A stretch of DNA of 63,876 nucleotides, filler included, from an uncultured bacterium (lineage in GTDB: Bacteria > CAZSTA01): the NCBI GenBank assembly GCA_964609495.1. It is 3 parts of 3 records of this genome, joined end to end, with 100 filler letters (N's around TTAATTAATTAA, not from the genome) between each part and the next. Parts side by side here need not be neighbours in the genome. Positions count along the whole stretch, not along the records: positions 1 to 22,451 come from CAZSTA010000037.1; 2 more parts are not named here. The stretch is one strand, 5' to 3'. The translations under genes were made by a program, and so were the position numbers. Position 1 is the first letter of the stretch. Each line of letters begins with the position of its first letter. Shown piece by piece: positions 4,309 to 55,699 of this stretch. The notes below the pieces were generated by a model, which saw only the letters and a list, made by a program, of their open reading frames with translations, did not search any database and was not told the origin of the DNA.

Positions 4309-4539
4309 ATGCCAATCTATGAATATAAATGTTCGGATTGCGAATCTGAGTTCGAGATATTAGTCAGAGGAAAGAATGAAAAGAAACTTCATTGCCCACA
4401 GTGCGGGAGCGAAAATATAAGTCGTCTCTTTTCAAGCTTTGGTGTTAGTATGGGGTCTTCATCCCAAACGAGTGTTTCTTCGAGTTCATCTTCAGCTTGT
4501 AGTGTCTGTACTTCCCAAAGCTGTAGCATCTGCAAATAG
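4309..4539 (+). CDS. FmdB-family zinc-ribbon protein
   Basis: MPIYEYKCxxC...CPxCGS plus C-terminal Cys cluster. Confidence 0.9.
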   Translation: MPIYEYKCSDCESEFEILVRGKNEKKLHCPQCGSENISRLFSSFGVSMGSSSQTSVSSSSSSACSVCTSQSCSICK

Positions 4540-4557
4540 GCAAGGAGGGGAAGTATA

Positions 4558-4947
4558 ATGTATAGCGATTTAGTTATGGAACACTTCAGTAATCCCCGCA
4601 ATGTGGGAGAGATGCCAGATGCCGATGGAGTTGGAACAGAGGGTAATCCCGTATGTGGTGACATTATGAGAATCTATGTCAAGGTCAATAATAACCACAT
4701 CGAGGATATTAAGTTCAAAACCTTCGGGTGTGGAGCAGCTATCGCTACCAGCAGTATGGTAACCGAGATGGTCAAGGGTAAAACTCTGGACGAAGCGATG
4801 GAGATATCCAATAAAGCTGTAGCTGAGGCTTTAGGAGGATTGCCATCAAATAAGATGCACTGTTCCAATTTGGCAGCAGATGCTCTCCACAAAGCTATTG
4901 AGGATTATCGTTCCAGGCAGGCCGAGAAATCCGACAAGGGGGAGTGA
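4558..4947 (+). CDS. iscU: Fe-S cluster scaffold protein (IscU/NifU-N)
   Basis: HFSNPRNVG, GNPVCGD, FGCGAAIA, KMHCSNLA. Confidence 0.95.
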   Translation: MYSDLVMEHFSNPRNVGEMPDADGVGTEGNPVCGDIMRIYVKVNNNHIEDIKFKTFGCGAAIATSSMVTEMVKGKTLDEAMEISNKAVAEALGGLPSNKMHCSNLAADALHKAIEDYRSRQAEKSDKGE

Positions 4948-5147
4948 TAAAAGTGGATGTAGAAAACATCAATAAAGCCGGAAAGGGAGAAACTTGTTGC
5001 TGTCCATATTGCGATCAGGAGTTGTTCATCGATGCTCCATTCTGTGTGCCTTGTGGAAAGAAAATCCTATTTTGCCCGGAGTGTGGAGAACCTTTGCCTC
5101 AATCTGCTGAGAGATGCGATAGCTGTGGAGCTGAAATCGAGAAATAG
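4944..5147 (+). CDS. Double zinc-ribbon protein
   Basis: Four CxxC pairs in 67 aa; GTGA overlap with the iscU stop. Confidence 0.75.
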   Translation: MIKVDVENINKAGKGETCCCPYCDQELFIDAPFCVPCGKKILFCPECGEPLPQSAERCDSCGAEIEK

Positions 5148-5439
5148 AGAGTTGTGATTCTCTAATAAATATTAGTGTTGGAAATAAACATTTCTAAGCT
5201 CGCTTATAGTGAGGTTTCCCTACTTTCAGAGCCTTACATCTACCCGCAAAGATATCTCCAAAAGCTAGTTATAATGTGATTTGACATCCGAAAATCCCGA
5301 AATAAATAGAGATTAAGGAATCGCAATCTAAATGTATCGCTCAGTTCAGTCCTCCAAATTGTACAGAAATTAAGACCGAAGAAAGGTCTGGCAGTTGCTG
5401 GAACTTCCTTGGAAATTCTTAAGAACAGGGGGGGTTAAG

Positions 5440-8400
5440 ATGAAACATTTAGTAAGGGAGGGGTTAGGTTTGACCATCCCAAAAGTGCCCGCTTGCAGTA
5501 AAGTGCTTCTATTAGTTGGGGGGCTCTGTGTAGCGGTCATGCTGTTTACGGGTCTGGTAAGTTTGCCAGCGCAGGCCCAAGCTTATATCTTCAGTGGCCA
5601 TGTCTACTGGGGTAGTCCCCCTGATACAAGTCAGGGCCTCGGTGACGTTACCATCGAACTTTACGGAGATCGGGACGAATGGCCTGAGGGCGGGCCGAAA
5701 ACTCTACTCGCAGCGACTATGACCAATGAGGCAGGCGAGTTTAGATTACATTGGCAGTCGAGAGACGTTGAGTTTCCCTACTATCATGTCATCGAGGTGG
5801 ATCCGCCCGATGCCGTCTCCACCGGTGCCCAAGCTGGGTCACCAGGCTACGTCAAGAACTTCGATGTGGTCTCCTATCTGGACATACCACCAGGTACCTA
5901 CGCAGATATCGCGTTCTGGGATCAGTATCCGCACGTGCCCCCGTCGCTGGGTGACGAGTTTCCCGAATTGGTAGTTGCAGAACTCGGCTTCAGTCCTCCG
6001 AAGCCCCAAGCTGGCGATGAACTGATCATCGAAGCAGTGATCGAGAACGCCGGCGATGCCCCAGCTGACGAGGTGTCAGTAGTGTTTAGAAACGATAGCT
6101 GGGAAGGGTGGGCAACTATTGAACATATCGCGGCTGGAGCACGAGCGATAGCCAGAATCGTTGAGACAGCTCCCGAGCCCGGCGAATACCTCGTGACTGC
6201 GATAGTCGATCCAGAGAACCTGATCAAAGAGCACAATGAGCAAAACAACGAAGCACGGGAAATTATGGTGGTGATTGGAGGGCCACTTGCCGAGGGCTGG
6301 TGCTGTAAAGACGCCCAGGTGTTCTCTTCCTCCGAGCCCGAATGTCGCGAAGAGGAAGGTAGCTTCTTCTCCACCGAGGAAGAAGCCCGGGAGTATTGCC
6401 AGCCTGAGGAACTTCGTAGGGGCTNNNNNNNNNNNNNNNNNNNNNNNNNNNNNNNNNNNNNNNNNNNNNNNNNNNNNNNNNNNNNNNNNNNNNNNNNNNN
6501 NNNNNNNNNNNNNNNNNNNNNNNNCTTCTTTTCCACCGAGGAAGAAGCCCGGGAGTATTGCCAGCCTGAGGAACTTCGTAGGGGCTGGTGCTGTAAGGAC
6601 GGCCAGGTGTTCTCTTCCTCCGAGCCCGAGTGTCGCGAAGAGGAAGGTAGCTTCTTTTCCACCGAGGAAGAAGCCCGGGAGTATTGCCAGCCTGAGGAAC
6701 TTCGTGAGGAGCTTCCTGACTTAACAATTATCGAGATAGATTTTGATACTAGAACTCCTTCTGCTGGCGAGGAAGTAACGATAAGAGCACTCATTAGCAA
6801 CATAGCCAATGCGCCAGCTGAGGAAATCCCAATCATCTTTATAGTTGATCAACAGAAGCTTGCGTGGGAAACCATTAGCCGTATACAACCTGACGGGCAA
6901 GAAGTAGTTATAGCTACCTGGACGGCGACAACCCCTGGTGATCACACTCTATACATAGAGGTTGATTCGGATAACCTGGTTCGGGAACTTAACGAGGAAA
7001 ACAATGAAAAGAGTGCAATTCTGACAGTGAAGTTGGAAGAAGTAGTATCCCCGATCCCTATCGTCCCCATTCCGGTGTCATACCATTCAAAAAACCTAGG
7101 ATTGTACTCCAAAAAGGAAGTATTCCTAATATCTGACGAGAACTGGCGATACGTGTTGAAGCTGGTACCCTTGGCTACCTGGAGTAACCCAACTAACAAA
7201 GTCCTGGTCGCCAGCTATCCAACACTCATTTATCATCGAGAAGGTGACAACTTTGATGCCGATGCCATCATTCGCTTCCTCCAGCAATATAACCCATCCC
7301 ACCTCGCTACCTTCGGGGATACTCCTATGGAACTGAATAAGTTGCTGGTCGCCCCGAAACCCACTGGGGCTGGACTGACAGGGAAAATCTTAGAGTACAA
7401 GATGGACAGCTATCTATTCTTCTGGACATCCATAGATAGAGTCGTAATCTCAGAGGATGATTATGAGGCTGGTTTAATGGCTTCGGTCTTCGCTTCATAT
7501 CTCAATGCACCACTGCTCTTCGATGGACACTTCAAGCCCAACGTACTCAACAATCGGCATGCCTACGTCGTTGGCAAGGTCAGCCCGACCACAGAGCAGG
7601 AAATCAAGAAAAGGTGCAAACCGACGAGTGAGAAAACTCATTACAGCTTAGAGGAGCTGCGTAAGGCATATGTAAGCTGGACAGGCACAAATAAGGTGAT
7701 CCTCGTGAATCCCAATGATCTTAATATCGTGGCAAATAAGAAGTTTAAACCAGAGAAGAGCTCGTCCATTTCCAGCTTATACGGCAAGCACTCTCTAGCA
7801 GCACCTTTCCTAGCAGCAGCCAAGTTCGAAGTGATCATTTCCACTGAGGTAAATAATTACCTAGCAGTAGATAACTATGTTGAGAATACCCTTGATACCT
7901 TGAAGCTCCCAGGGCCGTTAACCTATCTCACCATCGTAGCCAACCCCAGGGCTATTCCTATGGCCAGGGAGAACAGAGACACAAAGCCTGCCTTGTGGGG
8001 AAATAGGGCGGTATTCGAAGAAATTGATGTTTCAAAGATTGATTCCCATCCTCTGGAGATCTCACTCGTTACTTACAACACCTCTACCGGAAGTGTAGGT
8101 TCACAGATTATCACAAGCACGAAGGCGGATCCGTTATCTCCAGCAATCTATAAAGATAAAATCGTTTGGCAGGATCTCCGCAACGGCAACTGGGATATCT
8201 ACCTATACGACCTGGCCAAGAATATCGAGAAGCCGATTATCTCTAACAATAGCAACCAGACGATGCCCGCAATTTATGGAGACAAGATCGCCTGGCAAGA
8301 CAACAGAAACGGCAACTGGGATATCTACATGTATGATCTCACCCAAAAGAAAGAGATCCGAATCACCACCGACACACATGACCAGGTGAATCCCGCAATT

Positions 8401-9747
8401 TACGGGGACAAGATCGTCTGGCAAGATAACAGAAACAGCAACCAATGGGATATCTATATGTATGACCTCAGCAAAAAGAAAGAGAGCCGAATCACCACTG
8501 ACAAACGTGCCCAAATGAATCCGGCAATCGACGGAAGTGTGATCGTCTGGCGAGACAAAAGAAATAGTGAACAATGGGACATCTATATGTATGATCTCAA
8601 CCAAAAGAAGGAGATCCAAATCACTACTGACAATAATCATCAGTTACATCCTAGCATATCCGGGAAAAGAATCGTCTGGGAAGACTACCGACATGGGAAT
8701 CCGGCTGTGTATATCTACGACATAGCAACAAAAACAGAGAAGCGGCTCACTACCGGTGACAACAAACAAATTGTCCCTGTTATTCAGGGAGATCACGTCA
8801 TATGGTACAGCGAGGGGAAAACGGGTGTTCCTCCGGTTCATGTGGCGCCACCTGCTGGACCCCACGGGGGCCACTGGCTAACGTATTTCTATGAGATTTC
8901 TACGGGGAAATGTATGTATCACCAAAACCTACTTACTCATGTGCATTCGACTTTTCGACAAGAGGCAGACGGAAGATACTACGGAAGCTTCGTCAACTAT
9001 GGAAAGCAAGACAGAGCTGTAGGAAGAATCTTCGGTGCTACCGTTTCGGATGTGTCGGCGTATATCGCTCGGGACCTCTTTTTTGACGATATAAAACCCA
9101 AAAAGAAAGATGCCTTGCTTATAGTACTGGAGGATCATCAGGACGAAACGCGTTACAAGGAAACAGACGGGGCTGCCTTATATAAATATGCTACAGACAC
9201 CTATTGGACCACAGACGTTCATAAACAGTTTGACGCAGTGCACTTCTATGCTGGGGCAGATAAGGGGGCAGCAAAGGCCCCCGCTGTAAACAAGAATATC
9301 GCCACAATACAAGGTCTATATGATGATAGCTACCTGATTCTGTATGCCGATCACGGAGGGCCGAGCGGCTTTGACAACGTAGTCACTAGCGCTTATCTTC
9401 AAAACAAAAAGGTATCTCTGTTGCCCTCAACTATCCTTGATATAGCCTGCGCCACCGCCACCGTCCTTTGGGGGTATATCCCAACGGAAAACAACTTCAC
9501 TATAGAGAATATACGGCGTGGAGCCATGATCTACATGGGTGCAGTTGATAATTCCTACTGGCATCGCATGTTCGACAATATCCTTAAAGGCGTCTTCATT
9601 GATGGAAAAACAATTGGTCAGGCCTATTTAGAAGCTAGAAACGAAGAATACCAAAATTGTATTGCTAAGCCTCCCCCCTGGCCGTGCGGAGATCCCTATT
9701 ACGCTCTGATTGGAGACCCTACTTTTAAACCGAGGTGGTGGAAATGA
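5440..9747 (+). CDS. Large secreted multidomain protein: signal peptide, two CARDB domains, Cys-rich repeats, and a peptidase C25 (gingipain)-like domain with inserted beta-propeller
   Basis: Hydrophobic leader ending AQA; VDPENLIKExNExNN CARDB motifs; PAIYGDKIVWQDNRNGNWDIYMYDL repeats; VGRI, YADHG, DIAC, LIGDP C25-type motifs; start uncertain; spans a 100-N gap. Confidence 0.75.
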   Translation: MKHLVREGLGLTIPKVPACSKVLLLVGGLCVAVMLFTGLVSLPAQAQAYIFSGHVYWGSPPDTSQGLGDVTIELYGDRDEWPEGGPKTLLAATMTNEAGEFRLHWQSRDVEFPYYHVIEVDPPDAVSTGAQAGSPGYVKNFDVVSYLDIPPGTYADIAFWDQYPHVPPSLGDEFPELVVAELGFSPPKPQAGDELIIEAVIENAGDAPADEVSVVFRNDSWEGWATIEHIAAGARAIARIVETAPEPGEYLVTAIVDPENLIKEHNEQNNEAREIMVVIGGPLAEGWCCKDAQVFSSSEPECREEEGSFFSTEEEAREYCQPEELRRGXXXXXXXXXXXXXXXXXXXXXXXXXXXXXXXXXXFFSTEEEAREYCQPEELRRGWCCKDGQVFSSSEPECREEEGSFFSTEEEAREYCQPEELREELPDLTIIEIDFDTRTPSAGEEVTIRALISNIANAPAEEIPIIFIVDQQKLAWETISRIQPDGQEVVIATWTATTPGDHTLYIEVDSDNLVRELNEENNEKSAILTVKLEEVVSPIPIVPIPVSYHSKNLGLYSKKEVFLISDENWRYVLKLVPLATWSNPTNKVLVASYPTLIYHREGDNFDADAIIRFLQQYNPSHLATFGDTPMELNKLLVAPKPTGAGLTGKILEYKMDSYLFFWTSIDRVVISEDDYEAGLMASVFASYLNAPLLFDGHFKPNVLNNRHAYVVGKVSPTTEQEIKKRCKPTSEKTHYSLEELRKAYVSWTGTNKVILVNPNDLNIVANKKFKPEKSSSISSLYGKHSLAAPFLAAAKFEVIISTEVNNYLAVDNYVENTLDTLKLPGPLTYLTIVANPRAIPMARENRDTKPALWGNRAVFEEIDVSKIDSHPLEISLVTYNTSTGSVGSQIITSTKADPLSPAIYKDKIVWQDLRNGNWDIYLYDLAKNIEKPIISNNSNQTMPAIYGDKIAWQDNRNGNWDIYMYDLTQKKEIRITTDTHDQVNPAIYGDKIVWQDNRNSNQWDIYMYDLSKKKESRITTDKRAQMNPAIDGSVIVWRDKRNSEQWDIYMYDLNQKKEIQITTDNNHQLHPSISGKRIVWEDYRHGNPAVYIYDIATKTEKRLTTGDNKQIVPVIQGDHVIWYSEGKTGVPPVHVAPPAGPHGGHWLTYFYEISTGKCMYHQNLLTHVHSTFRQEADGRYYGSFVNYGKQDRAVGRIFGATVSDVSAYIARDLFFDDIKPKKKDALLIVLEDHQDETRYKETDGAALYKYATDTYWTTDVHKQFDAVHFYAGADKGAAKAPAVNKNIATIQGLYDDSYLILYADHGGPSGFDNVVTSAYLQNKKVSLLPSTILDIACATATVLWGYIPTENNFTIENIRRGAMIYMGAVDNSYWHRMFDNILKGVFIDGKTIGQAYLEARNEEYQNCIAKPPPWPCGDPYYALIGDPTFKPRWWK
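6295..6705 (+). repeat. Intragenic 126-bp (42-aa) Cys-rich tandem repeat, at least 3 units
   Basis: GWCCKDxQVFSSSEPECREEEGSFFSTEEEAREYCQPEELRR units start at 6295, 6421 and 6583; gap 6425-6524 lies inside the array. Confidence 0.9.
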
Positions 9748-10943
9748 AAAGAATAATAGTTTTTCTGTCCCTGTTTCTTTTGGCTTGTCTTTTACCGGTC
9801 GGAGTCGCCCAAGCAACTGGGTTCTCTCTAAAAACGGCTCAGCGGATTTACAAACCCGGAGATACGATCCTGGTTACAGCAGATCTTTATAATGACTACG
9901 AATCTGAAGCTGATGTTGTTCTTGAGTGCCTTTTGACAAGCCAAACAAAGATAAGTTATGACAGACTAGTTTATCACCCTGTCACCTTAGGCCCAGGTGA
10001 GTCGAAAACGGTCACTTTGTACGAGATCTACGTTACTGAAGATTTCCCCTCTGACGAATATAGAGTTGTCGTTAAACTGGTTATGGACAATATCGTTGAA
10101 GATGAAAGAGAGATCATCTTCCTGGTTGAGGATACACTTGAGGAAATGGTCTTTGGCGTTCATCTCTGCAAAGATAGAGAATGCGAACACGAGTCTAGCG
10201 TTTTTATACAAGGTGACAATGTCTATGTAAGTTACGAGTCGCCCATTAATGGCCTCCAAGTTACGGGAACTATCTCTTTCCCTGACGAGTCAAAAGAACA
10301 GATAGCTCTGCCTACAGCACTTCAAGCAATGCAGACTGGCTCGTATGTTTTGCTGGTGACTGCTTCAAAGGAAAGATACAACCGCGAAACCGAAGAAATA
10401 AACTTTGCAGTTATTGAAAAGGAGCCCCGTATTCCTGAAGTTCTCTTGGCTGACAGTTTTGAAGATGGAATAGCCGATGGCTGGGAGCTGGAGCCAGGCT
10501 GGCGGGTAGAACGGGAGGACGGGAATTACGTCCTCAGCGGAGAAGGCCATAGCTGGGTACGGTTAGAGACAGGACTGGACTGGACCGATTATTCCTTCCG
10601 GTTCCGCCTTAAACTCATTAGAGGCGGGATTCACTTAAACTATCGGGTGAGCAGTGAAGGGAGATACTTCATTGGTTTCGGGGAAGAAGGCGTTTATCTG
10701 AACAAGGAAACTCCTTGGGGAAATTTCTTCGACCTGGCTGGAAGTGACGCATACCATCGTCTTGAGGTCTGGTATGATGTGAAGATAGTGGGTGAGGGAG
10801 GACATCTTCAGGTCTATGTGGATGGGATTTTGAAGTTGGATTATATCGACGATGCCCCTCTCACATGGGGTAATATCGCCTTTGAGACCCTGGAGGGCTC
10901 TCATGCCTATATAGACGATGTAGAAGTCACTGGACTGAGATAG
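9744..10943 (+). CDS. Secreted protein with Ig-like N-terminal region and C-terminal DUF1080/concanavalin-like beta-sandwich
   Basis: Signal peptide MKRIIVFL...AQA; ATGA overlap with upstream stop; DSFEDG..GW...WTDYSF...WYDVKI...GNIAF...IDDVEV pattern. Confidence 0.65.
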   Translation: MKRIIVFLSLFLLACLLPVGVAQATGFSLKTAQRIYKPGDTILVTADLYNDYESEADVVLECLLTSQTKISYDRLVYHPVTLGPGESKTVTLYEIYVTEDFPSDEYRVVVKLVMDNIVEDEREIIFLVEDTLEEMVFGVHLCKDRECEHESSVFIQGDNVYVSYESPINGLQVTGTISFPDESKEQIALPTALQAMQTGSYVLLVTASKERYNRETEEINFAVIEKEPRIPEVLLADSFEDGIADGWELEPGWRVEREDGNYVLSGEGHSWVRLETGLDWTDYSFRFRLKLIRGGIHLNYRVSSEGRYFIGFGEEGVYLNKETPWGNFFDLAGSDAYHRLEVWYDVKIVGEGGHLQVYVDGILKLDYIDDAPLTWGNIAFETLEGSHAYIDDVEVTGLR

Positions 10944-11308
10944 ACTTCCAAGTATTGGTTCGGGACTCTATTCTCCAGGCAGATTAGGTCTATGATTAGC
11001 TTATAACGAGCAAAATAGCGATTCACTTTCTTACAATTTGGATGACTGAATTGAGCGATATAATTAGACTGCGATTCCTTAATCTCTATACTCCTCATTT
11101 ATTTCGAGATTTCCAAATATCGAATCAAATTATAAACGACTTTTGGAGCTATCTTTATAGCTGAATGTAAGGATCTGAAAGTGGGAAGACCTCACTATAA
11201 GCGAGTTTAGAGATATTTATTTCCAACACTAAAATATATATAGGGGCAGGTGATATCATCTGCCCACTTAGCGTCTATAAAGTCTGTTGATGGAAGGAGT
11301 GCTCGATT

Positions 11309-12370
11309 ATGGTAGATGCAGGTGCTTTAAGAGGATTCGCGACAAAAATTTTAATGAAGTTAGATGTCCCTGAAGATGATGCTAGAGCGACTGCTGACGT
11401 ATTAGTCAGTGCAGATCTCAGAGGGATAGATTCTCACGGAATTGCTCGGTTATGGAGATATGTAACTGGACTAAAGAGAGGATTGATAGAAGCCAATCCA
11501 GATATAAAGGTTGTAAAGGAGACACCGACCACCCTTCTCCTTGATGCTGGAAACGGCTTAGGTCAGGTGGCGGGCGTCAAAGCTATGAAGAGATGTATCG
11601 AGAAAGCTCTAGAATCTGGAATGGCTTTCGTTGCAGTCCGCAACAGCAATCATTATGGCATAGCTGGATATTATGCGATGATGGCTCTTCAGCATGATAT
11701 GATGGGTTTATCCCTTACAAATTCCAGCCCTTTAGTAGTCCCTACCTACGGGAAGGAGGTTATGTATGGAACTAACCCGATCGCCTTCGCTGTCCCCACC
11801 GGTGAGGAGAGACCCTTCGTGTTAGATATGGCTACTAGTGTAGTTCCCGTCGGCAAGATCGAGGTCCTGAGAAGAAAAGGGGAGAAGATACCTCCTGGCT
11901 GGGCAGTCGATAGCGAAGGGAGGTTAACAGATGATCCCGATCTAGTTGTTAAGGAAGGAAGACTACTACCCCTTGGGGGCACTGCTGAGATGAGAGGATA
12001 TAAGGGCTATGGTTTAGGTGTATCGGTAGATATCCTCTGTGGACTTCTCTCCGGAGCAGCTTATGGGCCTTATATCACTCGTTGGCATATGGGAGGTCGC
12101 AATGAGCCTGTCCGATTGGGGCATTTCTTCGGCGCGATAAAAATCGAGGCTTTCAGACCTATAGATGAGTTCAAGAGAGATATGGATGATATGATCCGAA
12201 AGCTGAAGGAATCTCCCAAAGCTGAGGGGGAAAACAGGATATTCATCCATGGCGAGAAGGAGTATGAGATGGAGGATAAGAGGAAGAGCGAGGGGATTCC
12301 ACTCCATCCTAAAGTAGCAGACAATCTCAAGGAGATAGGTGAGGAATTAGGAGTTGAATATAACTTATAA
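11309..12370 (+). CDS. Ldh_2 family (malate/L-lactate/sulfolactate-type) oxidoreductase
   Basis: ADLRGIDSHG, RNSNHYG, GTNPIAF, LDMATS, KGYGL. Confidence 0.92.
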   Translation: MVDAGALRGFATKILMKLDVPEDDARATADVLVSADLRGIDSHGIARLWRYVTGLKRGLIEANPDIKVVKETPTTLLLDAGNGLGQVAGVKAMKRCIEKALESGMAFVAVRNSNHYGIAGYYAMMALQHDMMGLSLTNSSPLVVPTYGKEVMYGTNPIAFAVPTGEERPFVLDMATSVVPVGKIEVLRRKGEKIPPGWAVDSEGRLTDDPDLVVKEGRLLPLGGTAEMRGYKGYGLGVSVDILCGLLSGAAYGPYITRWHMGGRNEPVRLGHFFGAIKIEAFRPIDEFKRDMDDMIRKLKESPKAEGENRIFIHGEKEYEMEDKRKSEGIPLHPKVADNLKEIGEELGVEYNL

Positions 12371-22451: not shown

Positions 22452-22550
22452 NNNNNNNNNNNNNNNNNNNNNNNNNNNNNNNNNNNNNNNNNNNNTTAAT
22501 TAATTAANNNNNNNNNNNNNNNNNNNNNNNNNNNNNNNNNNNNNNNNNNN
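22452..22550. other. Artificial contig linker
   Basis: N-run, TTAATTAATTAA (stops in all frames), N-run. Confidence 0.95.
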
Positions 22551-22676
22551 NTTCTTTGAAGCTATTTAAATTCACCTGACTGTAAGGCACTTTCCAGATA
22601 AGAGGCGACTAATTGGAGTTGCTCTTTATAATCAGTTCGAGAGGTTGAGTAATTTATCATATCGGATGATTGACCC

Positions 22677-26535: not shown

Positions 26536-27819
26536 CTAATTACCGACCTTATTGGAGTGAAATTCGTTCTCCAATATCTCCAATATATCCTCCTGCGACT
26601 CAACTACCTTCGCCCTATCGGCTATCAGCTCGTTATATAGAATCGAGGCTCTTCCCTCTACAAAATCCCTCTCCGATATGGGGGTCTCCTGATGAATTAT
26701 CAGAGGGATATTATTATCTAAGGCGAACTTAGCCGCCTCGAGATTCTTCATATTCCCATGACCGATAGGAATATTAGTTAGGATTACTACATCAGCCTTT
26801 TCGATAGCTCGTAGATTGAGCTTATGAGTATCCTCCCTTATCGGAGAGAAAGGTATCTCCTCAACCACCTCTACCCCTAGAGATATAGCTAGTTCCCAAT
26901 CCGAATCTTTGACGTTTAAAGCTCCAACAGTTATTTTATATCCCTCTTTGCACAGACGAGAGATTACCGTCTGACCTGCTCCTCCTCCACATATTATATG
27001 CACTCTCAAGGTCTTGGTGAATAAGCTTCTCTTCTGATTCGGATAGGGGATCACCAAGGGTCTATTAGAAAAGGTATCCTTTCTTATAATCACTTCCGCG
27101 TTATATACCGCCTTTATATTATCAGCGGTTATAACTTCCTCGGGGCGACCAGAGGCGAATATCTTCCCTTTATTAAGCATTATAAGATAATCACAATATT
27201 GGGATGATAAGTTTAGATCATGGGATACCGCGATAATCGTTAAATCCTCCTCTTTATTGAGCCTTTTGATAAGATCGAATATCTCCAATTGATAATTTAT
27301 ATCCAAGTGGGAAGTAGGTTCATCTAAGAGCAGAAGAGTTGGCTCTTGCGTCAAAGCTCTAGCGATAATAACCCTTTGCTTCTCCCCACCCGATAGCTCC
27401 GTAAAGGGACGATGAGCTATATCCCAAGTATCCGTAAGTTGCATCGCTCTCTGGGCGATCTCTCTATCTCTCTCCCCCTCCTGGGAAAATCTTCCTATAT
27501 AGGGCGCTCTTCCCATAAGGACTATCTCCCAGGCGGTGAAAGCAAAGGAGATCTCGCCATCTTGAGGAACGACCGCGACTCTCCTAGCTAGATCTCTCCT
27601 CTTAAATAATTTGATATCCTTCCCCTCTAGGATGATATCTCCCTCAGAAGGTTTTAACACCCGACTTATATTTTTCAACAGAGTAGATTTCCCCGAGCCA
27701 TTAGGCCCTATGATCCCCACGAACTCCCCTCTATCTATGGAGAAACTTATATCGTGCAGAACCTTTATAGTCTCATAGTCGAAGTTTACGTTACGAACTT
27801 CTAGTGAAGTTTTGAGCAA
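26536..27819 (-). CDS. Iron-chelate/cobalamin-type ABC transporter ATP-binding protein with C-terminal extension
   Basis: GPNGSGKST, LSGGEKQR, LLDEPTSHLD, HDLN; extension VHIICGGG. Confidence 0.9.
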   Translation of the reverse strand: MLKTSLEVRNVNFDYETIKVLHDISFSIDRGEFVGIIGPNGSGKSTLLKNISRVLKPSEGDIILEGKDIKLFKRRDLARRVAVVPQDGEISFAFTAWEIVLMGRAPYIGRFSQEGERDREIAQRAMQLTDTWDIAHRPFTELSGGEKQRVIIARALTQEPTLLLLDEPTSHLDINYQLEIFDLIKRLNKEEDLTIIAVSHDLNLSSQYCDYLIMLNKGKIFASGRPEEVITADNIKAVYNAEVIIRKDTFSNRPLVIPYPNQKRSLFTKTLRVHIICGGGAGQTVISRLCKEGYKITVGALNVKDSDWELAISLGVEVVEEIPFSPIREDTHKLNLRAIEKADVVILTNIPIGHGNMKNLEAAKFALDNNIPLIIHQETPISERDFVEGRASILYNELIADRAKVVESQEDILEILENEFHSNKVGN

Positions 27820-28133
27820 GATTTGATCACCCCTTAGATCCCGAACATTCGGGTATCAAGATAGCTTCGAAAGTCGATTATACTCACTCTAATTACATAA
27901 CTCAGTTCAGCAACTCAAATTACAAGAGACTGAATCGCTACTTTGTTTGCTAAGGCCAATCATAGAACTATTGCTTCGAAGATAACTTAGATATAAAACA
28001 CGGAAACACAAGGCCGAGATAGGTGAGGCTAAAATCTACATCTACGACGGTGTTTCCGCGGACTAGGATTACCATTATTTTTGAATAGAGCTTGAACTTT
28101 TACTAACAGCTCAGAGATACCCCTACTCACCGA

Positions 28134-29692: not shown

Positions 29693-30124
29693 CTATGGAA
29701 AATAGAAATTGAAAACCTTCTTTGCCAGTGAAAAACATTTCTCTGCTATAGTTAGGGATTCTTTGGCGTCCTCTTCGCCAAACAATTGCCAAGGATCTCT
29801 ATAAGTTGCCTCATCACCGTAATCGGTCATAAAATGCTTCTCGAATCCTATCTCCTCAAATAAGGATAATGCTTTGTCTATATCCTCTATCAGATCTTTA
29901 TCTATCATCTTATCTTTGACTAATCGCTTCAATTGAATTGAGGGATTGTGAGATTTCTCGATTGGCTCGAAGATAACTATTATCGCCTTCCCCGAATTTT
30001 CAACTGATAATTGAGAATTATCAACGCAGGATCTCCAACGAGAAAGTGTTAGATCTTGCTTCGCCTCAGTTAGAAATCCCTCAGCTAAACGAAGACGATA
30101 ATGTGCCTCCTCCTCACAATTCAT
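29693..30124 (-). CDS. HEPN domain protein (putative toxin)
   Basis: AE.FL.EA...SQLSVENSGKA...SH...TDYG; overlaps the MNT gene. Confidence 0.85.
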   Translation of the reverse strand: MNCEEEAHYRLRLAEGFLTEAKQDLTLSRWRSCVDNSQLSVENSGKAIIVIFEPIEKSHNPSIQLKRLVKDKMIDKDLIEDIDKALSLFEEIGFEKHFMTDYGDEATYRDPWQLFGEEDAKESLTIAEKCFSLAKKVFNFYFP

Positions 30125-30578
30125 GATATCCCTCCCAATCTATCCCCCACTTCCCCTTAGGTCGCCGTTTCCAACTCCAGTAGAACTCGCCATTCTCCTT
30201 CTTCCTCTCCAGACCAGATTCCTTGATTATCTCCTTTATCCTGAGCAACCGTTTGGACATAAAATCCTTATCGTAAAGGACTATTCCATCCAAGCCTATA
30301 TCCAAGAATAGAGAGGGGAAGTTATTGATGACTTCCTCTCTAGTCTTCGCGATTATGGAGATCCTCTCCTCAAATTTCCCTGTTAGCGGTCTTCTCACAA
30401 AACGAGTTCTCTTGAAGGGGCTGGAAGGAAGTTCCTCAACCACTAAGAAGATGTCATAATCGCTGGTTTCCTTAGCTCCCCCTCTAGCCCTTGAGCCAAA
30501 GAGTACGATAGAGATTAGATAATCTCCTAGGTATTCCTTATAGCACCTAACTAACTTTTCCTTAAAATTGCTATCCAT
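30114..30578 (-). CDS. Minimal nucleotidyltransferase (MNT, putative antitoxin)
   Basis: LFGSRARG...SDYD. Confidence 0.88.
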   Translation of the reverse strand: MDSNFKEKLVRCYKEYLGDYLISIVLFGSRARGGAKETSDYDIFLVVEELPSSPFKRTRFVRRPLTGKFEERISIIAKTREEVINNFPSLFLDIGLDGIVLYDKDFMSKRLLRIKEIIKESGLERKKENGEFYWSWKRRPKGKWGIDWEGYHEL

Positions 30579-31597: not shown

Positions 31598-32221
31598 TTA
31601 GCCAATCAATATACCAGTAAAAAATTGCACAATCGGCCATATTATTCCACCAATCACTCCTACTAAAAGGAGAGCGAATAGTATGAAGAAACCGTATGGC
31701 TCGATCCGAGAAAAAGCTATAGCTTGCCTCATCGGTAATATCCCGGTCAGGATACGAGATCCATCCAGAGGCGGTATCGGGATCAAGTTGAATATCCCCA
31801 ACAATAGGTTAAGATATATGCACATAAGCAAGAAGCTGAAGAGAGGTCTGGCTGAATAAATGGAGATACCAGAGCTGAGCAATAATCTCCAGATAATTGA
31901 GAATAAAATAGCCAGAGAGAAATTAGCTCCTGGTCCAGCTAAACTTACCCACATCATATCTCGCTTTGGATTCTTGAAGTTTCGAGGATTCACTGGGACT
32001 GGCTTCGCCCAGCCAAATCCTACTCCGCTCAGGCTGGAGATGACAAACATCAAAGTCCCTAGCGGATCGAGATGGATCAGGGGATTCAAAGTCAAGCGCC
32101 CGTTGTCACGAGCAGTAGGATCTCCCAATTTATCGGCTACCCATCCGTGCGAATACTCGTGAAAGACGATAGCTAGTAAGAATATAGGTAAAGTTGTGAT
32201 AAAACGCGTTATAAGACTCAA
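31598..32221 (-). CDS. Site-2 protease (M50)
   Basis: HEYSH, LAGP, NLIPIPPLDG. Confidence 0.93.
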   Translation of the reverse strand: MSLITRFITTLPIFLLAIVFHEYSHGWVADKLGDPTARDNGRLTLNPLIHLDPLGTLMFVISSLSGVGFGWAKPVPVNPRNFKNPKRDMMWVSLAGPGANFSLAILFSIIWRLLLSSGISIYSARPLFSFLLMCIYLNLLLGIFNLIPIPPLDGSRILTGILPMRQAIAFSRIEPYGFFILFALLLVGVIGGIIWPIVQFFTGILIG

Positions 32222-34872
32222 TAGCTCTTTATTCCCTCCTCCGCCTTTCGAGAGAGTAATTCCTCGATATATTTTAACTGTTCCTCTCTCGAACGAACTT
32301 TTCCATCCAACTTAGCATCCAAAACCGAGGTCAATAACTCCTTAAATAAAAGACTTGGTTTGAGTCCCATCTCTAATAGATCATTTCCATCTACCTCGAT
32401 CTCAGTGGAACGCAATTTATCCAAGAATAAGCTCATCTTATCTATAGCTATCCGCTTATCAGCTTTAGCCATAAGGAAGAATGTAGCTTCTAAGGGCAGA
32501 GATATTAATTTGTGATAGATAAAGCTGGGCGGATATTCCTTCTCTGCCGAGAGAGCTGATATGATCTTCTGAGCCAACTTCGGAGTATCTGACATAAGTT
32601 CGATATTCTTCTTCGTCAATCTCAATCGGTTACCGATCTTTTTGATCCTCTCAGCTCTAAAATCCTGAAACATAAGGATGAAATATACGAGCCAAACCTC
32701 TACCTGTTGCTTCCTCACTAATTCCTGGTGATAAGAGAGCATCTCCTCCACTCTTCTTAATTCCTCCTCAAGATCTGGGGTGAGCCTCAAATCGGGATGG
32801 ATAAAGCGTAATATATTTAACTCAACCATTCTCTTTATCGCCCTATAGGGAGAAACTTCTCTGAAGAGGATAAGAAGTTCATCTCTTAATCTCTCTCCAC
32901 TCAAATTCTTTATCATATCGAGATCAACCGTATTTTGAATGAAGCCCACCGTTTGTCCTTCAATATGAAAATTATAACGAAGCTCGAATCTTATGGCTCG
33001 AAAGAGGCGAGTTGGATCTTCCACAAAACTCAGGTTATAAAGGACCCTTATAACTCCATTGGCAAGATCCCTCTGCCCCCCGTAAAAGTCAACTAACTCT
33101 CCAAATCTCCTCTTATTCAATCTAATCGCCATAGAGTTGATGGTAAAATCCCTTCTATAAAGATCCTTCTTTATAGAACTGTAGTCTATCTTAGGAAGAG
33201 CGGCTGGATATTCATAATATTCGATTCGGGAGGTAGCTACATCTATATGAAAATCGTCGGGAAGGATTATAACCGCAGTCCCAAAGGCTTCATGGCTTCG
33301 CACCCGACCTCCTAACACCCGAGCCAGAGCTTTAGCAAAAGTTATACCCTCTCCTTCAACAACGATATCGATATCGAGATTCTCCACACCTAATAATAGA
33401 TCTCTAACGAATCCCCCCACTGCATAAGCGGGATATCCCACCTCATCTGCTACTTCACCCACCTTTCTAAGGAGGGAGAAGACCCATTCGGGTAAATTAT
33501 CCTCCATAGGTTTCTTCAAACTACGTCTTATAATGCTCTTTTCCCCATTCACCTTATAAGTAGCAAACGATGTCTTCGGGAGGTTATCTTCCCCATACAG
33601 AGTTCTGAGTAAATCTTTGCGAGTAACGATCCCCAACAAGCGCTCATCCTCCACAACTGGAAGACGACCGATACTGTTCTCGATCATCAACTCCTGCATC
33701 TGCTTTAACGAGGTCTCTGGCTCTATAGTGATGAGCGAACGAGACATAAACCTAGAAACTGGGGTGTTTCCCAAGCCATGATATCCAGCTTTATCTATAT
33801 CTTTGCGGCAGATAATCCCCACCAACTTGTTGCCCTCCATAACTGGTAGGCCACTATGACCATAACGTAACATAATTTTTCTCGCCTCTTCAATAGTGGT
33901 ATTGACATCGATAGTCTTGACTGGCGAGGACATTATATCACCAGCTTTGGAGATCGGTCTTATCTTCTGTCCTACTACCTCTAACAAATCGGCCTCGATT
34001 CTTGTGAAATCCAAGTTTTTTATCGAAGCCGAGGCTGCCTCAGGGTGACCGCCCCCTCCAAATTCCCTAAGCACCTCATCAACATCCAAGGCTCTAGTTC
34101 GACTCCTACCCACCACATAGATATGGCTATCCATCTTCACTATCACGAAGATCGCTTCGGCATTCTCGATATCCACCAACTTGTGGGTGAGCATAGCTAT
34201 CTCTCCCACATACCCACGAACTTCAGCCTGGGCGGTTAGTAATCTTATCCCCTTTATGAAGTATTCCCTAAGAGAGCGGATCAACTTCTCCAAAAGAAGC
34301 CGTTGCCCCTCGGTTAAAGCTCTGGATATAAAGCTAGATACTACGGAGAGCTTAGCCCCCTTACCCACTAGATAGGCAGCCGCTTTGATATCTGCTACTC
34401 TGGTACTTGAAAAGGTCAAACTTCCAGTATCCTCATATATTCCCAAAGCTAAAATCGTAGCCTCCAGAGGGGTGAGAGAGATATTCCTCTCCCTAAGCAG
34501 ACGAACCAAGATAGTGGTAGTTGCTCCCATCTCCTCAGTTATATCCATATCGCTTCTAACATCATTTTCGCTGGGGGGATGGTGATCATAGGTATGAATC
34601 TCTATCCCTGGATTATCCAATACCTTCTCGATGCCACCTAATCGATCTTTCTGCTTAGTATCAACCAAAATCAGACGATCAACTCTATCGAGATCTACAT
34701 CTTTAGGGCTTTTAAGATCGAGAGAATCCTGGTATAGCTCGATAAATTCCTTTACATTTCTATCCAAAGCTCCACCTATGATTAATTGAGCTTCTGGATA
34801 TAGTTTCTTAGCCGCCACCATCGCGGCTAAAGCATCGAAATCGGTAGCGGTATGAGTGGTTATTATCTCCAT
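32218..34872 (-). CDS. DHH-CBS-nucleotidyltransferase (CCA/A-adding tRNA nucleotidyltransferase)
   Basis: DHH and GGGGH motifs, CBS pair, VGGFVRD, DIDIV, RRDFTIN, EDPTR. Confidence 0.92.
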   Translation of the reverse strand: MEIITTHTATDFDALAAMVAAKKLYPEAQLIIGGALDRNVKEFIELYQDSLDLKSPKDVDLDRVDRLILVDTKQKDRLGGIEKVLDNPGIEIHTYDHHPPSENDVRSDMDITEEMGATTTILVRLLRERNISLTPLEATILALGIYEDTGSLTFSSTRVADIKAAAYLVGKGAKLSVVSSFISRALTEGQRLLLEKLIRSLREYFIKGIRLLTAQAEVRGYVGEIAMLTHKLVDIENAEAIFVIVKMDSHIYVVGRSRTRALDVDEVLREFGGGGHPEAASASIKNLDFTRIEADLLEVVGQKIRPISKAGDIMSSPVKTIDVNTTIEEARKIMLRYGHSGLPVMEGNKLVGIICRKDIDKAGYHGLGNTPVSRFMSRSLITIEPETSLKQMQELMIENSIGRLPVVEDERLLGIVTRKDLLRTLYGEDNLPKTSFATYKVNGEKSIIRRSLKKPMEDNLPEWVFSLLRKVGEVADEVGYPAYAVGGFVRDLLLGVENLDIDIVVEGEGITFAKALARVLGGRVRSHEAFGTAVIILPDDFHIDVATSRIEYYEYPAALPKIDYSSIKKDLYRRDFTINSMAIRLNKRRFGELVDFYGGQRDLANGVIRVLYNLSFVEDPTRLFRAIRFELRYNFHIEGQTVGFIQNTVDLDMIKNLSGERLRDELLILFREVSPYRAIKRMVELNILRFIHPDLRLTPDLEEELRRVEEMLSYHQELVRKQQVEVWLVYFILMFQDFRAERIKKIGNRLRLTKKNIELMSDTPKLAQKIISALSAEKEYPPSFIYHKLISLPLEATFFLMAKADKRIAIDKMSLFLDKLRSTEIEVDGNDLLEMGLKPSLLFKELLTSVLDAKLDGKVRSREEQLKYIEELLSRKAEEGIKSY

Positions 34873-34998
34873 TTGGTAGCAACTCTTAAATAAGATAAAT
34901 TTACTAATAAATAGCTTGTAGATATATTGTAACATAATAATCGAGCTTCTGTCAAGTATTTATTGAGAAGGGGATGCATTTAGAATCGGGGATCAAAG

Positions 34999-44824: not shown

Positions 44825-44924
44825 NNNNNNNNNNNNNNNNNNNNNNNNNNNNNNNNNNNNNNNNNNNNTTAATTAATTAANNNNNNNNNNNNNNNNNNNN
44901 NNNNNNNNNNNNNNNNNNNNNNNN
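44825..44924. other. Artificial contig linker
   Basis: N-run, TTAATTAATTAA, N-run. Confidence 0.95.
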
Positions 44925-45002: not shown

Positions 45003-45079
45003 GGGCCTATAGCTCAGGTGGTGAGAGCGCACGCCTGATAAGCGTGAGGTCCCTGGTTCGAATCCAGGTAGGCCCACCA
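45003..45079 (+). tRNA. tRNA-Ile(GAT)
   Basis: GGGCCTA/TAGGCCC acceptor stem, CTGATAA anticodon loop, GGTTCGAATCC, encoded CCA. Confidence 0.97.
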
Positions 45080-45130
45080 GTTGAGATAGTGATCCGAGGC
45101 GAGGGATGAATTCCTTGACTCGATTTTGAG

Positions 45131-45206
45131 GGGGATGTAGCTCAGTTGGGAGAGCGCCGCCCTTGCAAGGCGGAGGTCAGCGGTTCGAACCCGCTCATCT
45201 CCACCA
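45131..45206 (+). tRNA. tRNA-Ala(TGC)
   Basis: GGGGATG/CATCTCC with G3:U70, TTGCAA anticodon loop, GGTTCGAAC, encoded CCA. Confidence 0.97.
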
Positions 45207-50541: not shown

Positions 50542-51310
50542 ATGCTTGGAAATACTATAAGGTTAAACAAATTATTTTCTGATGGTGAAAGAGTAGTTGT
50601 AGTAGCTGTTGATCATGGAGAGTTCTTTGGCCCTATCCCTGGCTTGATAGATTTACCCCAAACGGTTGAATCGGTTAAGGAAGCGGATGCGATATTGATG
50701 AGCCCAGGGATGGTTGAGCATTGTTCGGATACCTTCTCCAGACGGGATTCTCCTATGTTGATAGTACGCCTAAACTGGAGTTCCTCCTATTGCTTCCAAT
50801 GGAATTATAACGATTCGATAGTAGCGGATGTGGTTTCACCTCAGGAGGCTTTATATTTAGGAGCAGATATAGGTATGGCCTCTCTTATATTAAAGACCGA
50901 GTCGGAGAGGGTGGATACTGAGAATGTGGCTAACTTCGCCGAGATAATAGGGGAGAAGCGTAAGTGTGGACTGCCCGTAATTGGAGAATATTACCCTTGC
51001 AATGTGGATAAATTGACCCCTGAGGATCTTCACGAGCAGGTCTATATAGCCTGTCGGATTATAAGCGAATTGGGTGCAGATGCAGTAAAGACCTTCTATA
51101 CTGGTGAGAAATTTAACGAGGTAGTTGAGGCCACGCCGATCCCTATTCTAACTTTAGGGGCGGAGAAGATGGAGAAGGAGAGTCAAGCTCTACAACTAGC
51201 CTATAAGGCGGTTAATGCTGGAGCAAAGGGAGTGATCTTCGGTCGGAATGTGATTCAGGCTAAGAACCCAGAGATATTCCTTAAAGCTCTGAAGAAAGTT
51301 GTAAAAGAGG
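50542..51310 (+). CDS. Class I aldolase (DhnA/LsrF family); 3' end lost in gap
   Basis: VAVDHG, ELGADAVKT, GVIFGRN. Confidence 0.85.
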
Positions 51311-51624
51311 NNNNNNNNNNNNNNNNNNNNNNNNNNNNNNNNNNNNNNNNNNNNNNNNNNNNNNNNNNNNNNNNNNNNNNNNNNNNNNNNNNNNNNNNNN
51401 NNNNNNNNNNCTATCTCTATCACTTTATAAGCCTTCTGGGGAAGACTCCTAAGATATTTCTTGATACTTATATATCTGTTCCCTACTAGTATCCTAAGAT
51501 TACTCTTGCCAGCAGGGATCCAATGCTCCCCCTTTTATTTAGTCCTCTCTTAATCGAATCTGTATTCATTCCAGATCAATTCGTTGATGGATGGTTGTCC
51601 ACTTTATCCTCCGCTTGCGATTTC

Positions 51625-54628: not shown

Positions 54629-55459
54629 TTAAGTTTCTAATTCGCACAGAGCGGCTTCCATTTGTTCTTGAGTAGGGGCTTTGCCGTGAAAATCTACCAC
54701 ATTTTCCATAAATGATACCCCCTTACCCTTTATCGTGTGAGCGATGATTATCGTGGGTTTGCCTCTATATTCCAGAGCCAAAGCTAAAGCGGTCAGAATC
54801 CCTCTGAAGTTATGTCCATCTATCTCTATAACATTCCAATTGAAAGCTCTCCACTTATCAGCCATCGGGGAGGTGGACATTATCTCCTCCACCGGACCAT
54901 CGATTTGGAGACCGTTATAATCCAAGATGGCGGTGAGGTTATCAAGTTTATAGTGAGCAGCTGCCATCGCGGCCTCCCAAATCTGTCCCTCATCTGACTC
55001 TCCATCGCCGATCATCGCATAGACATGATAATCCTTCTCATCTAACTTCCCTGCTAGAGCCATTCCGTTAGCTACGGATAACCCCTGTCCTAGAGAGCCG
55101 GTTGTCATATCCACTCCCGGGGTCTTTTTCATATCCGGATGGCCTTGAAGTATGCTATGCAACTTTCTCAGGGTCAATAGCTCTTCTTTAGGGAAATATC
55201 CAGCTTCGGCTAGAGCGGCATAGAGAGCTGGGGCAGAGTGTCCTTTGGAGAGGACAAAGCGATCTCGATCCTCCCAATCCGGTCGCTGGGGATCTATTCG
55301 CATCTGATGAAAATAGAGAGCAGTTATAATATCGGCGGCAGATAGAGATCCGCCGGGATGTCCGGATTTAGCAGTGCCTGTCATCCTAATAACATCACAA
55401 CGAAGCTTTCTAGCTATAGTCTTTAACCGTCTGATGAGATCCTCATCGATATCTATCAC
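54629..55459 (-). CDS. Transketolase, N-terminal subunit
   Basis: [28 protein letters not shown]. Confidence 0.95.
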
Positions 55460-55480
55460 CAAGGAACCTCCTTTATATTT

Positions 55481-55699
55481 GCTCAAATTGGAGTAGTGTA
55501 TTTAGCTAAAAATGTCCTTACTTCGTAACCACCCTCCCCTACCTCCCCCCAATCAAGGGAGGGGAAAATAATCTCCTCAAGAAAGCTGTTTGATTATGTT
55601 CCCTCTCCCATCAGGGGAGAGGGATAAGTGAGGAGATTATATCTTGAACCCTCTAGCAAAAAGCTATGAATAGGGAGTTATTTATTTGAAACTACTTAA
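55481..55699 (-). repeat. REP/MITE-like repeat, copy E
   Basis: Hairpin doublet 55530-55635 with flanks shared with copy C. Confidence 0.8.

Follow-up and report, generated by a model that had tools for sequence, protein, structure and literature searches.

Gene content of the locus

The segment described here lies in a window of 63,876 nucleotides (the whole stretch of DNA that was analysed), and its host is an uncultured sediment bacterium. It is located between a zinc-ribbon gene, the last of a Zn_ribbon_8 / NifU_N / DZR gene run, and an Ldh_2 gene (Table 1). Two long inverted arms bound the segment, and only two genes, both for secreted proteins, are found between them. The segment 5173-11231 measures 6059 bp, which is approximate since a 100-N scaffold gap falls inside cargo gene 1.

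The product of cargo gene 1 starts with a signal peptide, followed by two CARDB domains, Cys-rich repeats, five beta-propeller repeats (beta_prop_Msarc/PD40) and a C-terminal Peptidase_C25 domain (E 1e-12). It also matches the NCBIfam model TIGR04275 with 303.7 bits. The product of cargo gene 2 has a signal peptide and a C-terminal 3-keto-disaccharide-hydrolase (3keto-disac_hyd)/DUF1080-like domain. Homologues of cargo gene 2 were detected as domain-level matches only, in 2 of 401 sampled Chloroflexota genomes. The genes share an ATGA overlap at 9744-9747, with the TGA stop of gene 1 at 9745-9747 and the ATG of gene 2 at 9744-9746, which bears out the translational coupling described in an earlier note on this DNA. 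That the segment is transposase-less, as also claimed there, agrees with the Pfam and NCBIfam searches, where neither cargo gene showed the domain of a transposase, integrase or recombinase. No family was matched by four small or antisense ORFs between or in the arms. The start of cargo gene 1 is 77 nt from the inner end of the left arm, and expression of the cargo probably starts in or just inside this arm.

The GC3 of the cargo is 0.46-0.56, compared to 0.46 +/- 0.04 in 38 other genes of the window, and its codon-usage distance is within the host range. The composition is at most mildly atypical and no GC step was observed across the segment. Since GC and codon usage are not distinctive, a foreign origin was not supported by composition.

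Table 1. Features of the segment, its flanks and the third copy of the arm
Feature	Position	Strand	Basis or remark
Left flank gene, 67-aa double zinc-ribbon protein	4944..5147	+	Pfam Zn_Ribbon_1 2e-09, DZR 1.6e-08
Hairpin directly 3' of the zinc-ribbon gene, left of the insertion site	5145..5164	+	folding of 5120-5172, z -2.47
Left AAATAT (putative target-site duplication)	5167..5172	.	read directly
Left arm (terminal inverted repeat)	5173..5363	+	outer to inner; repeat search, blastn, alignment
Conserved 16-bp tip of left arm	5173-5188	+	
17-bp imperfect palindrome in left arm	5199-5215	+	
Conserved 20-mer in left arm	5306-5325	+	
Cargo gene 1, ~1435 aa	5440..9747	+	Pfam, NCBIfam
100-N scaffold gap in cargo gene 1	6425-6524		
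Cargo gene 2, 399 aa	9744..10943	+	Pfam
Right unit inner extension	10968..11031	-	common to copy T, not left arm; pairwise alignment and nhmmer
Right arm (terminal inverted repeat)	11032..11231	-	outer to inner; 9-bp insertion relative to left arm
Right AAATAT (putative target-site duplication)	11232..11237	.	read directly
Strong hairpin right of the insertion site, 5' of the Ldh_2 gene	11242..11268	+	folding of 11232-11308, z -2.19
Right flank gene Ldh_2 (malate/L-lactate dehydrogenase-like)	11309..12370	+	Pfam Ldh_2 1e-131
Third copy T, solo, decayed	27832..27972	+	nhmmer with right unit alone, E 6.7e-10

The inverted arms and the flanking hexamer

The left arm is an imperfect reverse complement of the right arm, at exactly the coordinates given in the earlier note. 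A global alignment of the arms had 161 matches and 30 mismatches in 191 columns with one 9-bp indel, and the outer 16 bp were identical, the conserved tip of both arms being TAGTGTTGGAAATAAA. The local alignment score was 120, whereas the maximum in 300 shuffles was 14, and the left arm used as a blastn query found the right arm with an E-value of 4e-52. The repeat search of the window returned the arm pairs 5165-5307/11097-11239 (81%) and 5306-5363/11032-11089 (91%). Identity is about 84% and divergence about 16-20%. Conservation is perfect at the tip and in two subterminal blocks; the remaining arm sequence drifts. Each arm has GAAATAAA twice, at 8 nt and at 126 nt from its tip. The first two letters of both arms are TA; being a palindrome, TA may be taken as part of the inverted repeat or as a duplication. 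The right unit and copy T share about 63 nt more that have no counterpart in the left arm, and the inner ends are unequal, the arm lengths being 191-264 bp.

Each arm was examined for terminal repeats within itself. The outer 35 nt gave a best inverted match within the same unit that scored 10 in the right and 8 in the left arm, and these scores were equalled by shuffles in 13% and 44% of the trials, respectively. Neither arm thus carries its own terminal repeats, so the pair behaves as the two ends of a single element. This contradicts the composite of two inverted miniature elements suggested in the earlier note, and a MITE-bounded composite of the IMU type was rejected on the same grounds. 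A composite transposon (IS-cargo-IS) was rejected as well, the arms being 191-264 bp long and their ORFs (36 and 63 aa) having no Pfam family.

A coding origin of the arm is hinted at by the 3-base periodicity of its mismatches, 16 of 25 of which fall in one phase. For the 63-aa ORF-B (11098..10907), no homologue candidate of near or longer length was obtained. Its sole phmmer match among 1.84 billion representatives, a 2431-aa repeat protein aligned only with the non-repeat tail of ORF-B, was judged spurious. Since ORF-B has no credible homologue, the arm is not regarded as the beginning of a transposase gene. The arm was also tested as an RNA and rejected: no Rfam match was found at the gathering score or at E up to 1, its segments folded no better than shuffles (z -2.2 to +0.6), and none of the 47 predicted pairs of the consensus fold was compensatory.

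The hexamer AAATAT can be read directly outside both tips, as the earlier note had reported. Equal hexamers at both tips are expected by chance at about 4e-4, calculated from the flank composition and likewise from the window hexamer spectrum. The hexamer is absent from the inner flanks of both arms. AAATAT is itself an AT-rich hexamer within an AT-rich spacer. We regard the pair as a matching hexamer that is a putative rather than a proven duplication. The insertion site is an AT-rich spacer flanked by two hairpins between the zinc-ribbon and Ldh_2 genes, and 77 nt separate the tip of the right arm from the Ldh_2 start downstream. Across the right tip there is a weak sigma-70-like match directed outward, and no promoter-like site was found in the left arm.

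Other copies of the arm

A third copy was detected in the window. With a three-copy nhmmer profile, copy T extends over 27798-27984; it lacks the outer tip (~30-60 nt) as well as some 58 nt in the middle. It is found in a housekeeping intergenic region between the genes for an ABC ATPase and a LiaF-like protein, and its outer end abuts the start of the ABC ATPase gene. Some contigs of the metagenome runs match the right arm and then diverge from the window, with loose ends at 11234 (two contigs in X1 and two in X3) and at 10985 (two contigs in X1). Arm variants with internal deletions were also present in the metagenome contigs, as seen by the joints 11062>11199 and 11069>11164. Copy T and the contigs with other flanks show that the arm is one of a family of dispersed repeats whose outer boundary is discrete.

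A scan of the window with the tip and block B, allowing up to 3 mismatches, found no further copy, and a weak nhmmer match at 56712-56752, inside a histidine-kinase gene, was discarded. The 20-mer scan of the metagenome contigs gave three stretches. Two were the locus itself and one was an isolated 24-nt match in contig L081 upstream of a HrpB-like gene, with no likeness beyond it. Neither plasmids nor phages contained a match to the arm, viral contigs returned 0 and 0 matches, the 5 closest genomes only a 19-nt match (E 0.45), and the 401 sampled Chloroflexota genomes one 25-nt match with a per-genome E of 9.5e-4 that was judged to be chance.

The earlier note had proposed looking for other cargo pairs, for a transposase-bearing copy and for an empty site. 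Among the window, metagenome contigs, genomes, plasmids, phages and viral contigs searched, neither a second complete cassette or pair with other cargo nor an autonomous copy was found. None of the 53 ORFs scanned, out of 56 listed ORFs of at least 90 aa in the whole window, belonged to a transposase or recombinase family. No empty site was seen in relatives or contigs; in the contigs of four runs, which drop rare variants, neither a 5172-to-11232 joint nor a strand-changing joint at the arms, as expected for an inversion, was listed.

The closest sampled relatives of the window are distant. The best identity was 55% for Ldh_2, with the window neighbours present at none of 80 loci, and 56% for TrpRS among the 401 sampled Chloroflexota genomes, where the class of the best genome comprises 5 genomes only. 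NifU reached 80% at best, in 3 of the 5 closest genomes, and its neighbouring genes were absent there. Around Ldh_2 and NifU, no synteny was observed in any relative examined.

Proposed insertion as a mobile insertion cassette

Three features of a mobile insertion cassette (MIC) are present at the locus: passenger genes without a transposase, terminal inverted repeats and a flanking direct repeat. The segment looks like a well-formed but old, putative insertion footprint. We favour an old MIC insertion, moved in trans by a putative DDE transposase, and give this explanation about an even chance. The 6.06-kb segment would then be a non-autonomous passenger cassette that inserted as a whole, in a single event, in the AT-rich spacer with the two hairpins in the zinc-ribbon/Ldh_2 gap of about 100 nt. 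A DDE-type transposase encoded elsewhere would have bound both arms at the conserved tip and at the conserved subterminal blocks. The target would have been cut with a stagger of 6 bp, and repair would have led to the AAATAT duplication. The cargo brought in would be a two-gene secreted-protein operon, CARDB/beta-propeller/C25-peptidase-like plus DUF1080-like. With arms that drifted to 84% identity the insertion looks old; alternatively, the arms may derive from two diverged family members.

A more far-reaching proposal is an undescribed prokaryotic cut-and-paste family, with the arms as its ends. It would have TIRs of about 200-260 bp with a putative outer and inner binding site, a 6-bp duplication and a coding-derived sequence, and would shuttle secreted-protease/surface-protein operons among uncultured sediment bacteria. 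The coding origin is included because the 3-base periodicity of the arm divergence hints at it. We consider this proposal unlikely.

Transposase-less passenger cassettes have mainly been described in pathogens, with resistance, effector or restriction genes as their cargo. If the segment is mobile, large secreted-protein operons of uncultured environmental lineages are also transported by such cassettes, and the arms would suggest an IS family that has unusually long ends and is still to be found. The segment is useful for seeding repeat searches of the source metagenomes.

Comparison with known cassettes

Tn552 of Staphylococcus aureus has terminal inverted repeats of unusual length (~116 bp) and a target duplication of 6-7 bp. 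Unlike the segment, Tn552 codes for its own transposase and accessory proteins.

The earlier note suggested that the segment may represent an undescribed element family. However, the kind has been described, as MICs (PMC4337579, PMC3129680), and related forms are MITE-bounded units (PMC3184786) and restriction-modification units (PMC2853133). As a MIC, the segment would be a further example of a known cassette kind and is not surprising in kind. MICs are transposase-less passenger cassettes bounded by inverted repeats and a target duplication; they are thought or shown to move in trans, and solo inverted repeats occur beside them (PMC4337579, PMC3129680). Like the segment, MIC231 of Bacillus cereus and the TnXax1-IR MICs of Xanthomonas have passenger genes between IS/Tn-type inverted repeats, no transposase of their own and a short target duplication (PMC4337579, PMC3129680). 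As described there, the inverted repeats of the Xanthomonas MICs are 33-97 bp long, whereas the arms of the segment are about 200 bp; the duplication is 5 bp in MICs and 6 bp in the segment. No related IS or transposon with the ends of the segment is known or was found. In contrast to the MICs, the segment is from an uncultured sediment bacterium and its mobility is putative.

In the integron mobilization unit (IMU), two copies of a ~288-bp repeat without transposase flank the cargo, and the unit transposes in trans with a short outer duplication (PMC3184786, PMC5444012). The IMU and other cargo units bounded by miniature inverted-repeat elements (MITEs) resemble the segment in the transposase-less repeat pair around a cargo and the outer duplication. 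However, the IMU copies are presented there as MITEs with their own TIRs and are mutually identical, whereas the arms of the segment have no TIRs of their own and are 84% alike. The restriction-modification units described by Furuta et al. 2010 (PMC2853133) are also transposase-less cargo between long imperfect inverted repeats (60/65 identical in one example) and short direct repeats of 8 bp, and are interpreted there as possibly a non-autonomous transposon. Their insertion was proved by an empty site in a sister genome and their inverted repeats are unique to the unit, whereas the arm of the segment is a multi-copy repeat of three times that length. The MITE survey PMC11602168 has no mention of Chloroflex, TIR length, passenger or cargo.

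Alternative explanations

Several points were counted against the MIC insertion. No autonomous copy, second cargo pair or empty site was found in the material searched, solo copies exist so that the pairing could be coincidental, the arms are 16-20% different and unequal inside, the hexamer is AT-rich in an AT-rich spacer, and the cargo composition is near that of the host. From the earlier claim that large surface-protein cargo is moved in trans, the secreted-protein gene pair was retained; the movement found no counterpart in an empty site or a second cargo.

The main rival is that two independent solo copies of a ~260-bp dispersed intergenic repeat bracket a resident operon by chance, the hexamer being chance or a target preference, and that no 6-kb unit moved. 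Copy T and the contigs with other flanks are such solo copies, and the 84% identity of the arms with their unequal inner ends, the host-like cargo and the absence of a cognate transposase from everything searched would all fit. However, identical hexamers exactly at both tips would be a rare coincidence. Separate insertions should each have their own duplication, whereas the inner flanks are without AAATAT, and terminal inverted repeats are missing within a single unit. Moreover, the inverted order with both tips outward is one of four possible arrangements. The earlier note had named coincidental pairing of an abundant solo repeat as the case against its proposal; this is excluded in part only, and solo copies do exist. 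We consider the chance bracketing rather doubtful, though a serious competitor.

A regulatory module (promoter/operator or small-gene remnant) duplicated in inverted orientation without transposition is improbable. Examples would be a segment invertible by homologous or site-specific recombination, or paralogous upstream regions. The positions of the arms 77 nt before cargo gene 1 and before Ldh_2, the position of copy T at the ABC ATPase start, the sigma-70-like match over the right tip and the 3-base periodicity are in line with it. Yet no recombinase or invertase match was found in 53 of the 56 ORFs, the left arm is without a promoter-like site, and the arm has neither a conserved RNA fold nor an Rfam match. 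The small ORFs have no Pfam family, and ORF-B, the sole one searched for homologues, has none. The flanking hexamers are left unexplained. An inverton or shufflon was rejected since, besides the missing recombinase family, the arms are long and 16% diverged and not short near-identical sites.

Still less probable is an IS630/Tc1-mariner-type cassette, where the true duplication would be the TA starting each arm (TA followed by GTGTTGG...), the long ends would have a putative outer and inner binding site, and the AAATAT identity would be an AT-rich coincidence. Some Tc1-like elements have inverted repeats of about 200 bp with two binding sites, and the TA at both arms and the repeated GAAATAAA would fit this. 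However, the 6-bp identity (chance ~4e-4) is left unexplained, no IS630-like transposase was detected in the window (53 of 56 ORFs scanned), and the arms are alike over their full length and not at two sites only.

An assembly artefact, a chimeric join at a repeat in the metagenome scaffold, is very improbable: the scaffold has N gaps, one inside cargo gene 1, and in several runs the contigs have breaks within the right arm (at 11041, 11100, 11158 and 11202), but independent assemblies confirm the structure of the segment. Metagenome contig L082 corresponds to 4455-5806 at 100% and spans the whole left arm and both its junctions, and L083 (9719-11100, 99.9%) links cargo gene 2 with the right arm. 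The right junction is bridged into the Ldh_2 flank, with no differences, by a run X2 contig (11158-11408).

The inverted arms and their flanking hexamers

The cassette was analysed by repeat search, blastn, alignment and direct reading of the sequence. The earlier note had described two inverted arms, a hexamer repeated outside them and coupled genes between them, and all details of this description were correct. The repeat search of the window detected two inverted pairs that adjoin each other (5165-5307/11097-11239 and 5306-5363/11032-11089). When an arm was compared with the window by blastn, the other arm was matched with an E value of 4e-52. In the global alignment of the left arm to the reverse complement of the right arm, 161 positions matched and 30 did not, a single 9-bp indel was present, and the first 16 bases, the tip, were the same in both arms. 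The local score between the arms was 120, whereas 300 shuffles gave 14 at most. Both tips are directly abutted on the outside by AAATAT, the putative target-site duplication. Regardless of whether the flank composition or the window hexamer spectrum was used, the chance of identical hexamers at both tips was about 4e-4. The cassette length of 6059 bp is approximate because it includes a 100-N gap.

Features of the cassette and of the remaining window
Feature	Position	Strand	Remarks
Left hexamer	5167-5172		AAATAT
Left arm	5173-5363		inverted relative to right arm
Cargo gene 1	5440-9747	+	starts with ATG at 5440; signal peptide
Scaffold gap	6425-6524		100 N, within the repeat region of cargo gene 1
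Cargo gene 2	9744-10943	+	signal peptide; 3-keto-disaccharide-hydrolase/DUF1080-like domain
Inner extension	10968-11031		forms the right unit with the right arm
Right arm	11032-11231
Right hexamer	11232-11237		AAATAT
Third copy, T	~27832-27972		solo and decayed; nhmmer with the right unit alone as query, E 6.7e-10
HEPN and nucleotidyltransferase genes	29693-30578	-
DHH fusion gene	32218-34935	-	905 aa
tRNA-Ile(GAT) and tRNA-Ala(TGC)	45003-45206

The arm as a member of a repeat family

With nhmmer, exactly three copies of the arm were found in the window: T in addition to both arms. Since T and the right unit share about 63 nt that are absent from the left arm, the ancestral unit was at least about 263 bp long. 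Contigs of four metagenome runs were then placed along the locus at a likeness of 80%. Additional contigs matched the right arm and diverged from the window sequence thereafter, and two internally deleted variants were present as well. Loose contig ends were observed at 11234 (two contigs each of runs X1 and X3) and at 10985 (two contigs of X1). Further arm copies therefore exist in those communities, not necessarily in the same genome, and the contig ends mark the arm tip as a discrete boundary.

The arm was not found in 401 sampled Chloroflexota genomes (a tally that takes in four flagged as unpublished, G041, G148, G275 and G347, on which only the counts over the 401 genomes depend), in the 5 closest genomes or in plasmids, phages and viral contigs. 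Apart from the locus, a 20-mer scan of metagenome contigs yielded a single isolated match of 24 nt. The latter, at 5198-5221 of the 99.7-kb contig L081, is identical to the most conserved arm block (5306-5329/11066-11089). It extends to 34 nt at 85%, lies 230 nt from the contig end upstream of a HrpB-like helicase gene and is too long for chance in such a scan; L081 has no other likeness to the arm.

The earlier note had considered a composite of two inverted miniature elements. A single arm is not a self-contained MITE, since it lacks terminal inverted repeats of its own. As an RNA, the arm had no Rfam match, folded no better than shuffled sequences and showed no compensatory pairs. A 63-aa ORF starting in the right arm could not be assigned to a Pfam family and lacked a credible homologue. 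Fully conserved between the arms are the tip, a 17-bp imperfect palindrome and a 20-mer, and the remainder is 16-20% apart. In both arms GAAATAAA is present twice, 8 and 126 nt from the tip. These repeats and the conserved blocks are compatible with putative protein-binding sites. In the outer 128 nt (5173-5300 against 11104-11231), the 25 mismatches follow a 3-base period, with 16 of them in a single phase (corrected P about 0.005). In the left arm alone, the corresponding frame, read inward from the tip, stays open over 36 codons; in the right arm it is interrupted by stops from codon 28 onward. The periodicity and the matching open frame suggest that the repeat may derive from coding sequence.

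Cargo genes and surroundings

Cargo gene 1 encodes two CARDB domains, Cys-rich repeats around the N gap and five beta-propeller repeats of the Methanosarcina type (TIGR04275, 303.7 bits), with 129-nt tandem units at 8191-8703. At its C-terminus a gingipain-like Peptidase_C25 domain was detected (E 1e-12) that the whole-protein Pfam scan had missed. The two cargo genes are coupled by an ATGA overlap at 9744-9747. Contigs of X1 and X3 were about 80% identical to both genes (window 7492-10636) and show that another organism of these samples carries a diverged relative of this two-gene cassette, its flanks being outside the view.

Between the arms no transposase, integrase or recombinase domain was found, as had been stated before, nor in any of 53 of the 56 window ORFs of at least 90 aa (50542-51489, 54629-55486 and 62552-63574 were left out). 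The neighbourhood consists of bacterial housekeeping genes: a quinolinate phosphoribosyltransferase-like gene (QRPTase domains), NifU, aromatic amino-acid genes, TrpRS, a DHH-CBS-CCA-adding fusion and YmdB. In the fusion, a poly(A) polymerase/CCA-adding head domain is joined to DHH, DHHA1 and CBS domains. The cassette follows a double zinc-ribbon gene, 25 nt after its stop, and precedes the Ldh_2 gene by 77 nt; the site is an AT-rich spacer flanked by two hairpins. The composition gave no clear sign of foreign origin.

Proposed mode of insertion

Judged from its sequence, the cassette is a well-formed, old, transposon-like and putatively mobile segment. The reading we favour, with an even chance of being right, is that the cassette entered the site once and in one piece, through a DDE transposase acting in trans. 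Such an enzyme, encoded elsewhere, would recognise both arms and make a 6-bp staggered cut in the target. The inverted arms, the hexamers, the repeat family and the lack of a transposase are observed; the transposition and its enzyme are inferred. Other arm pairs with different cargo and a transposase-bearing copy, for which the earlier note had proposed a search, were not found in the genomes, plasmids, phages, viral contigs or metagenome contigs searched. An empty site was not found either; the closest reachable genomes are distant (best identities 55% for Ldh_2, 56% for TrpRS and 80% for NifU) and none keeps the gene order of the window.

The main alternative is a chance placement of two solo repeats on either side of a resident operon. 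Solo copies do exist and the mobility of the cassette is something we infer, but the hexamers match and the tips point outward, and we consider this explanation rather unlikely. A regulatory or invertible inverted duplication is improbable, and an IS630-like element with TA as the duplication slightly more so. An assembly artefact is scarcely credible: two independent metagenome contigs carry the structure (L082, 4455-5806 at 100%; L083, 9719-11100 at 99.9%), and the right tip is spanned by a contig from run X2.

Comparison with known elements

The cassette can be set beside Tn552, and likewise beside elements of several other kinds. An undescribed element had been proposed, whereas two papers already describe the kind as mobile insertion cassettes, MICs (PMC4337579, PMC3129680). 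As outlined there, MICs have passenger genes inside IS-type inverted repeats, no transposase and a target duplication at their limits; they move in trans, and solo inverted repeats are found beside them. The cassette shares the structural features, namely passenger genes with no transposase, terminal inverted repeats and a short direct repeat at its limits. Its ends have no known IS relative and exceed in length the 33-97 bp stated there for Xanthomonas MICs. The integron mobilization unit carries its cargo between two 288-bp MITE copies, and its transposition in trans produced a 5-bp duplication (PMC3184786, PMC5444012), whereas the cassette is not flanked by self-contained MITEs. A further paper reports restriction-modification genes within 65-bp imperfect inverted repeats with an 8-bp duplication, where insertion was proven by an empty site (PMC2853133).

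Other features of the window

The HEPN-domain gene adjoins the nucleotidyltransferase-domain gene as in a typical HEPN/MNT toxin-antitoxin-like pair. Masked or gap stretches at 22452-22551, 44825-44924 and 51311-51410 comprise two pairs of 44-N runs, the runs of each pair lying 12 bases apart, together with a second run of 100 N. The two tRNA genes, which immediately follow the N-masked stretch 44825-44924, are adjacent as in bacterial rRNA spacers; there is no rRNA match in the window.
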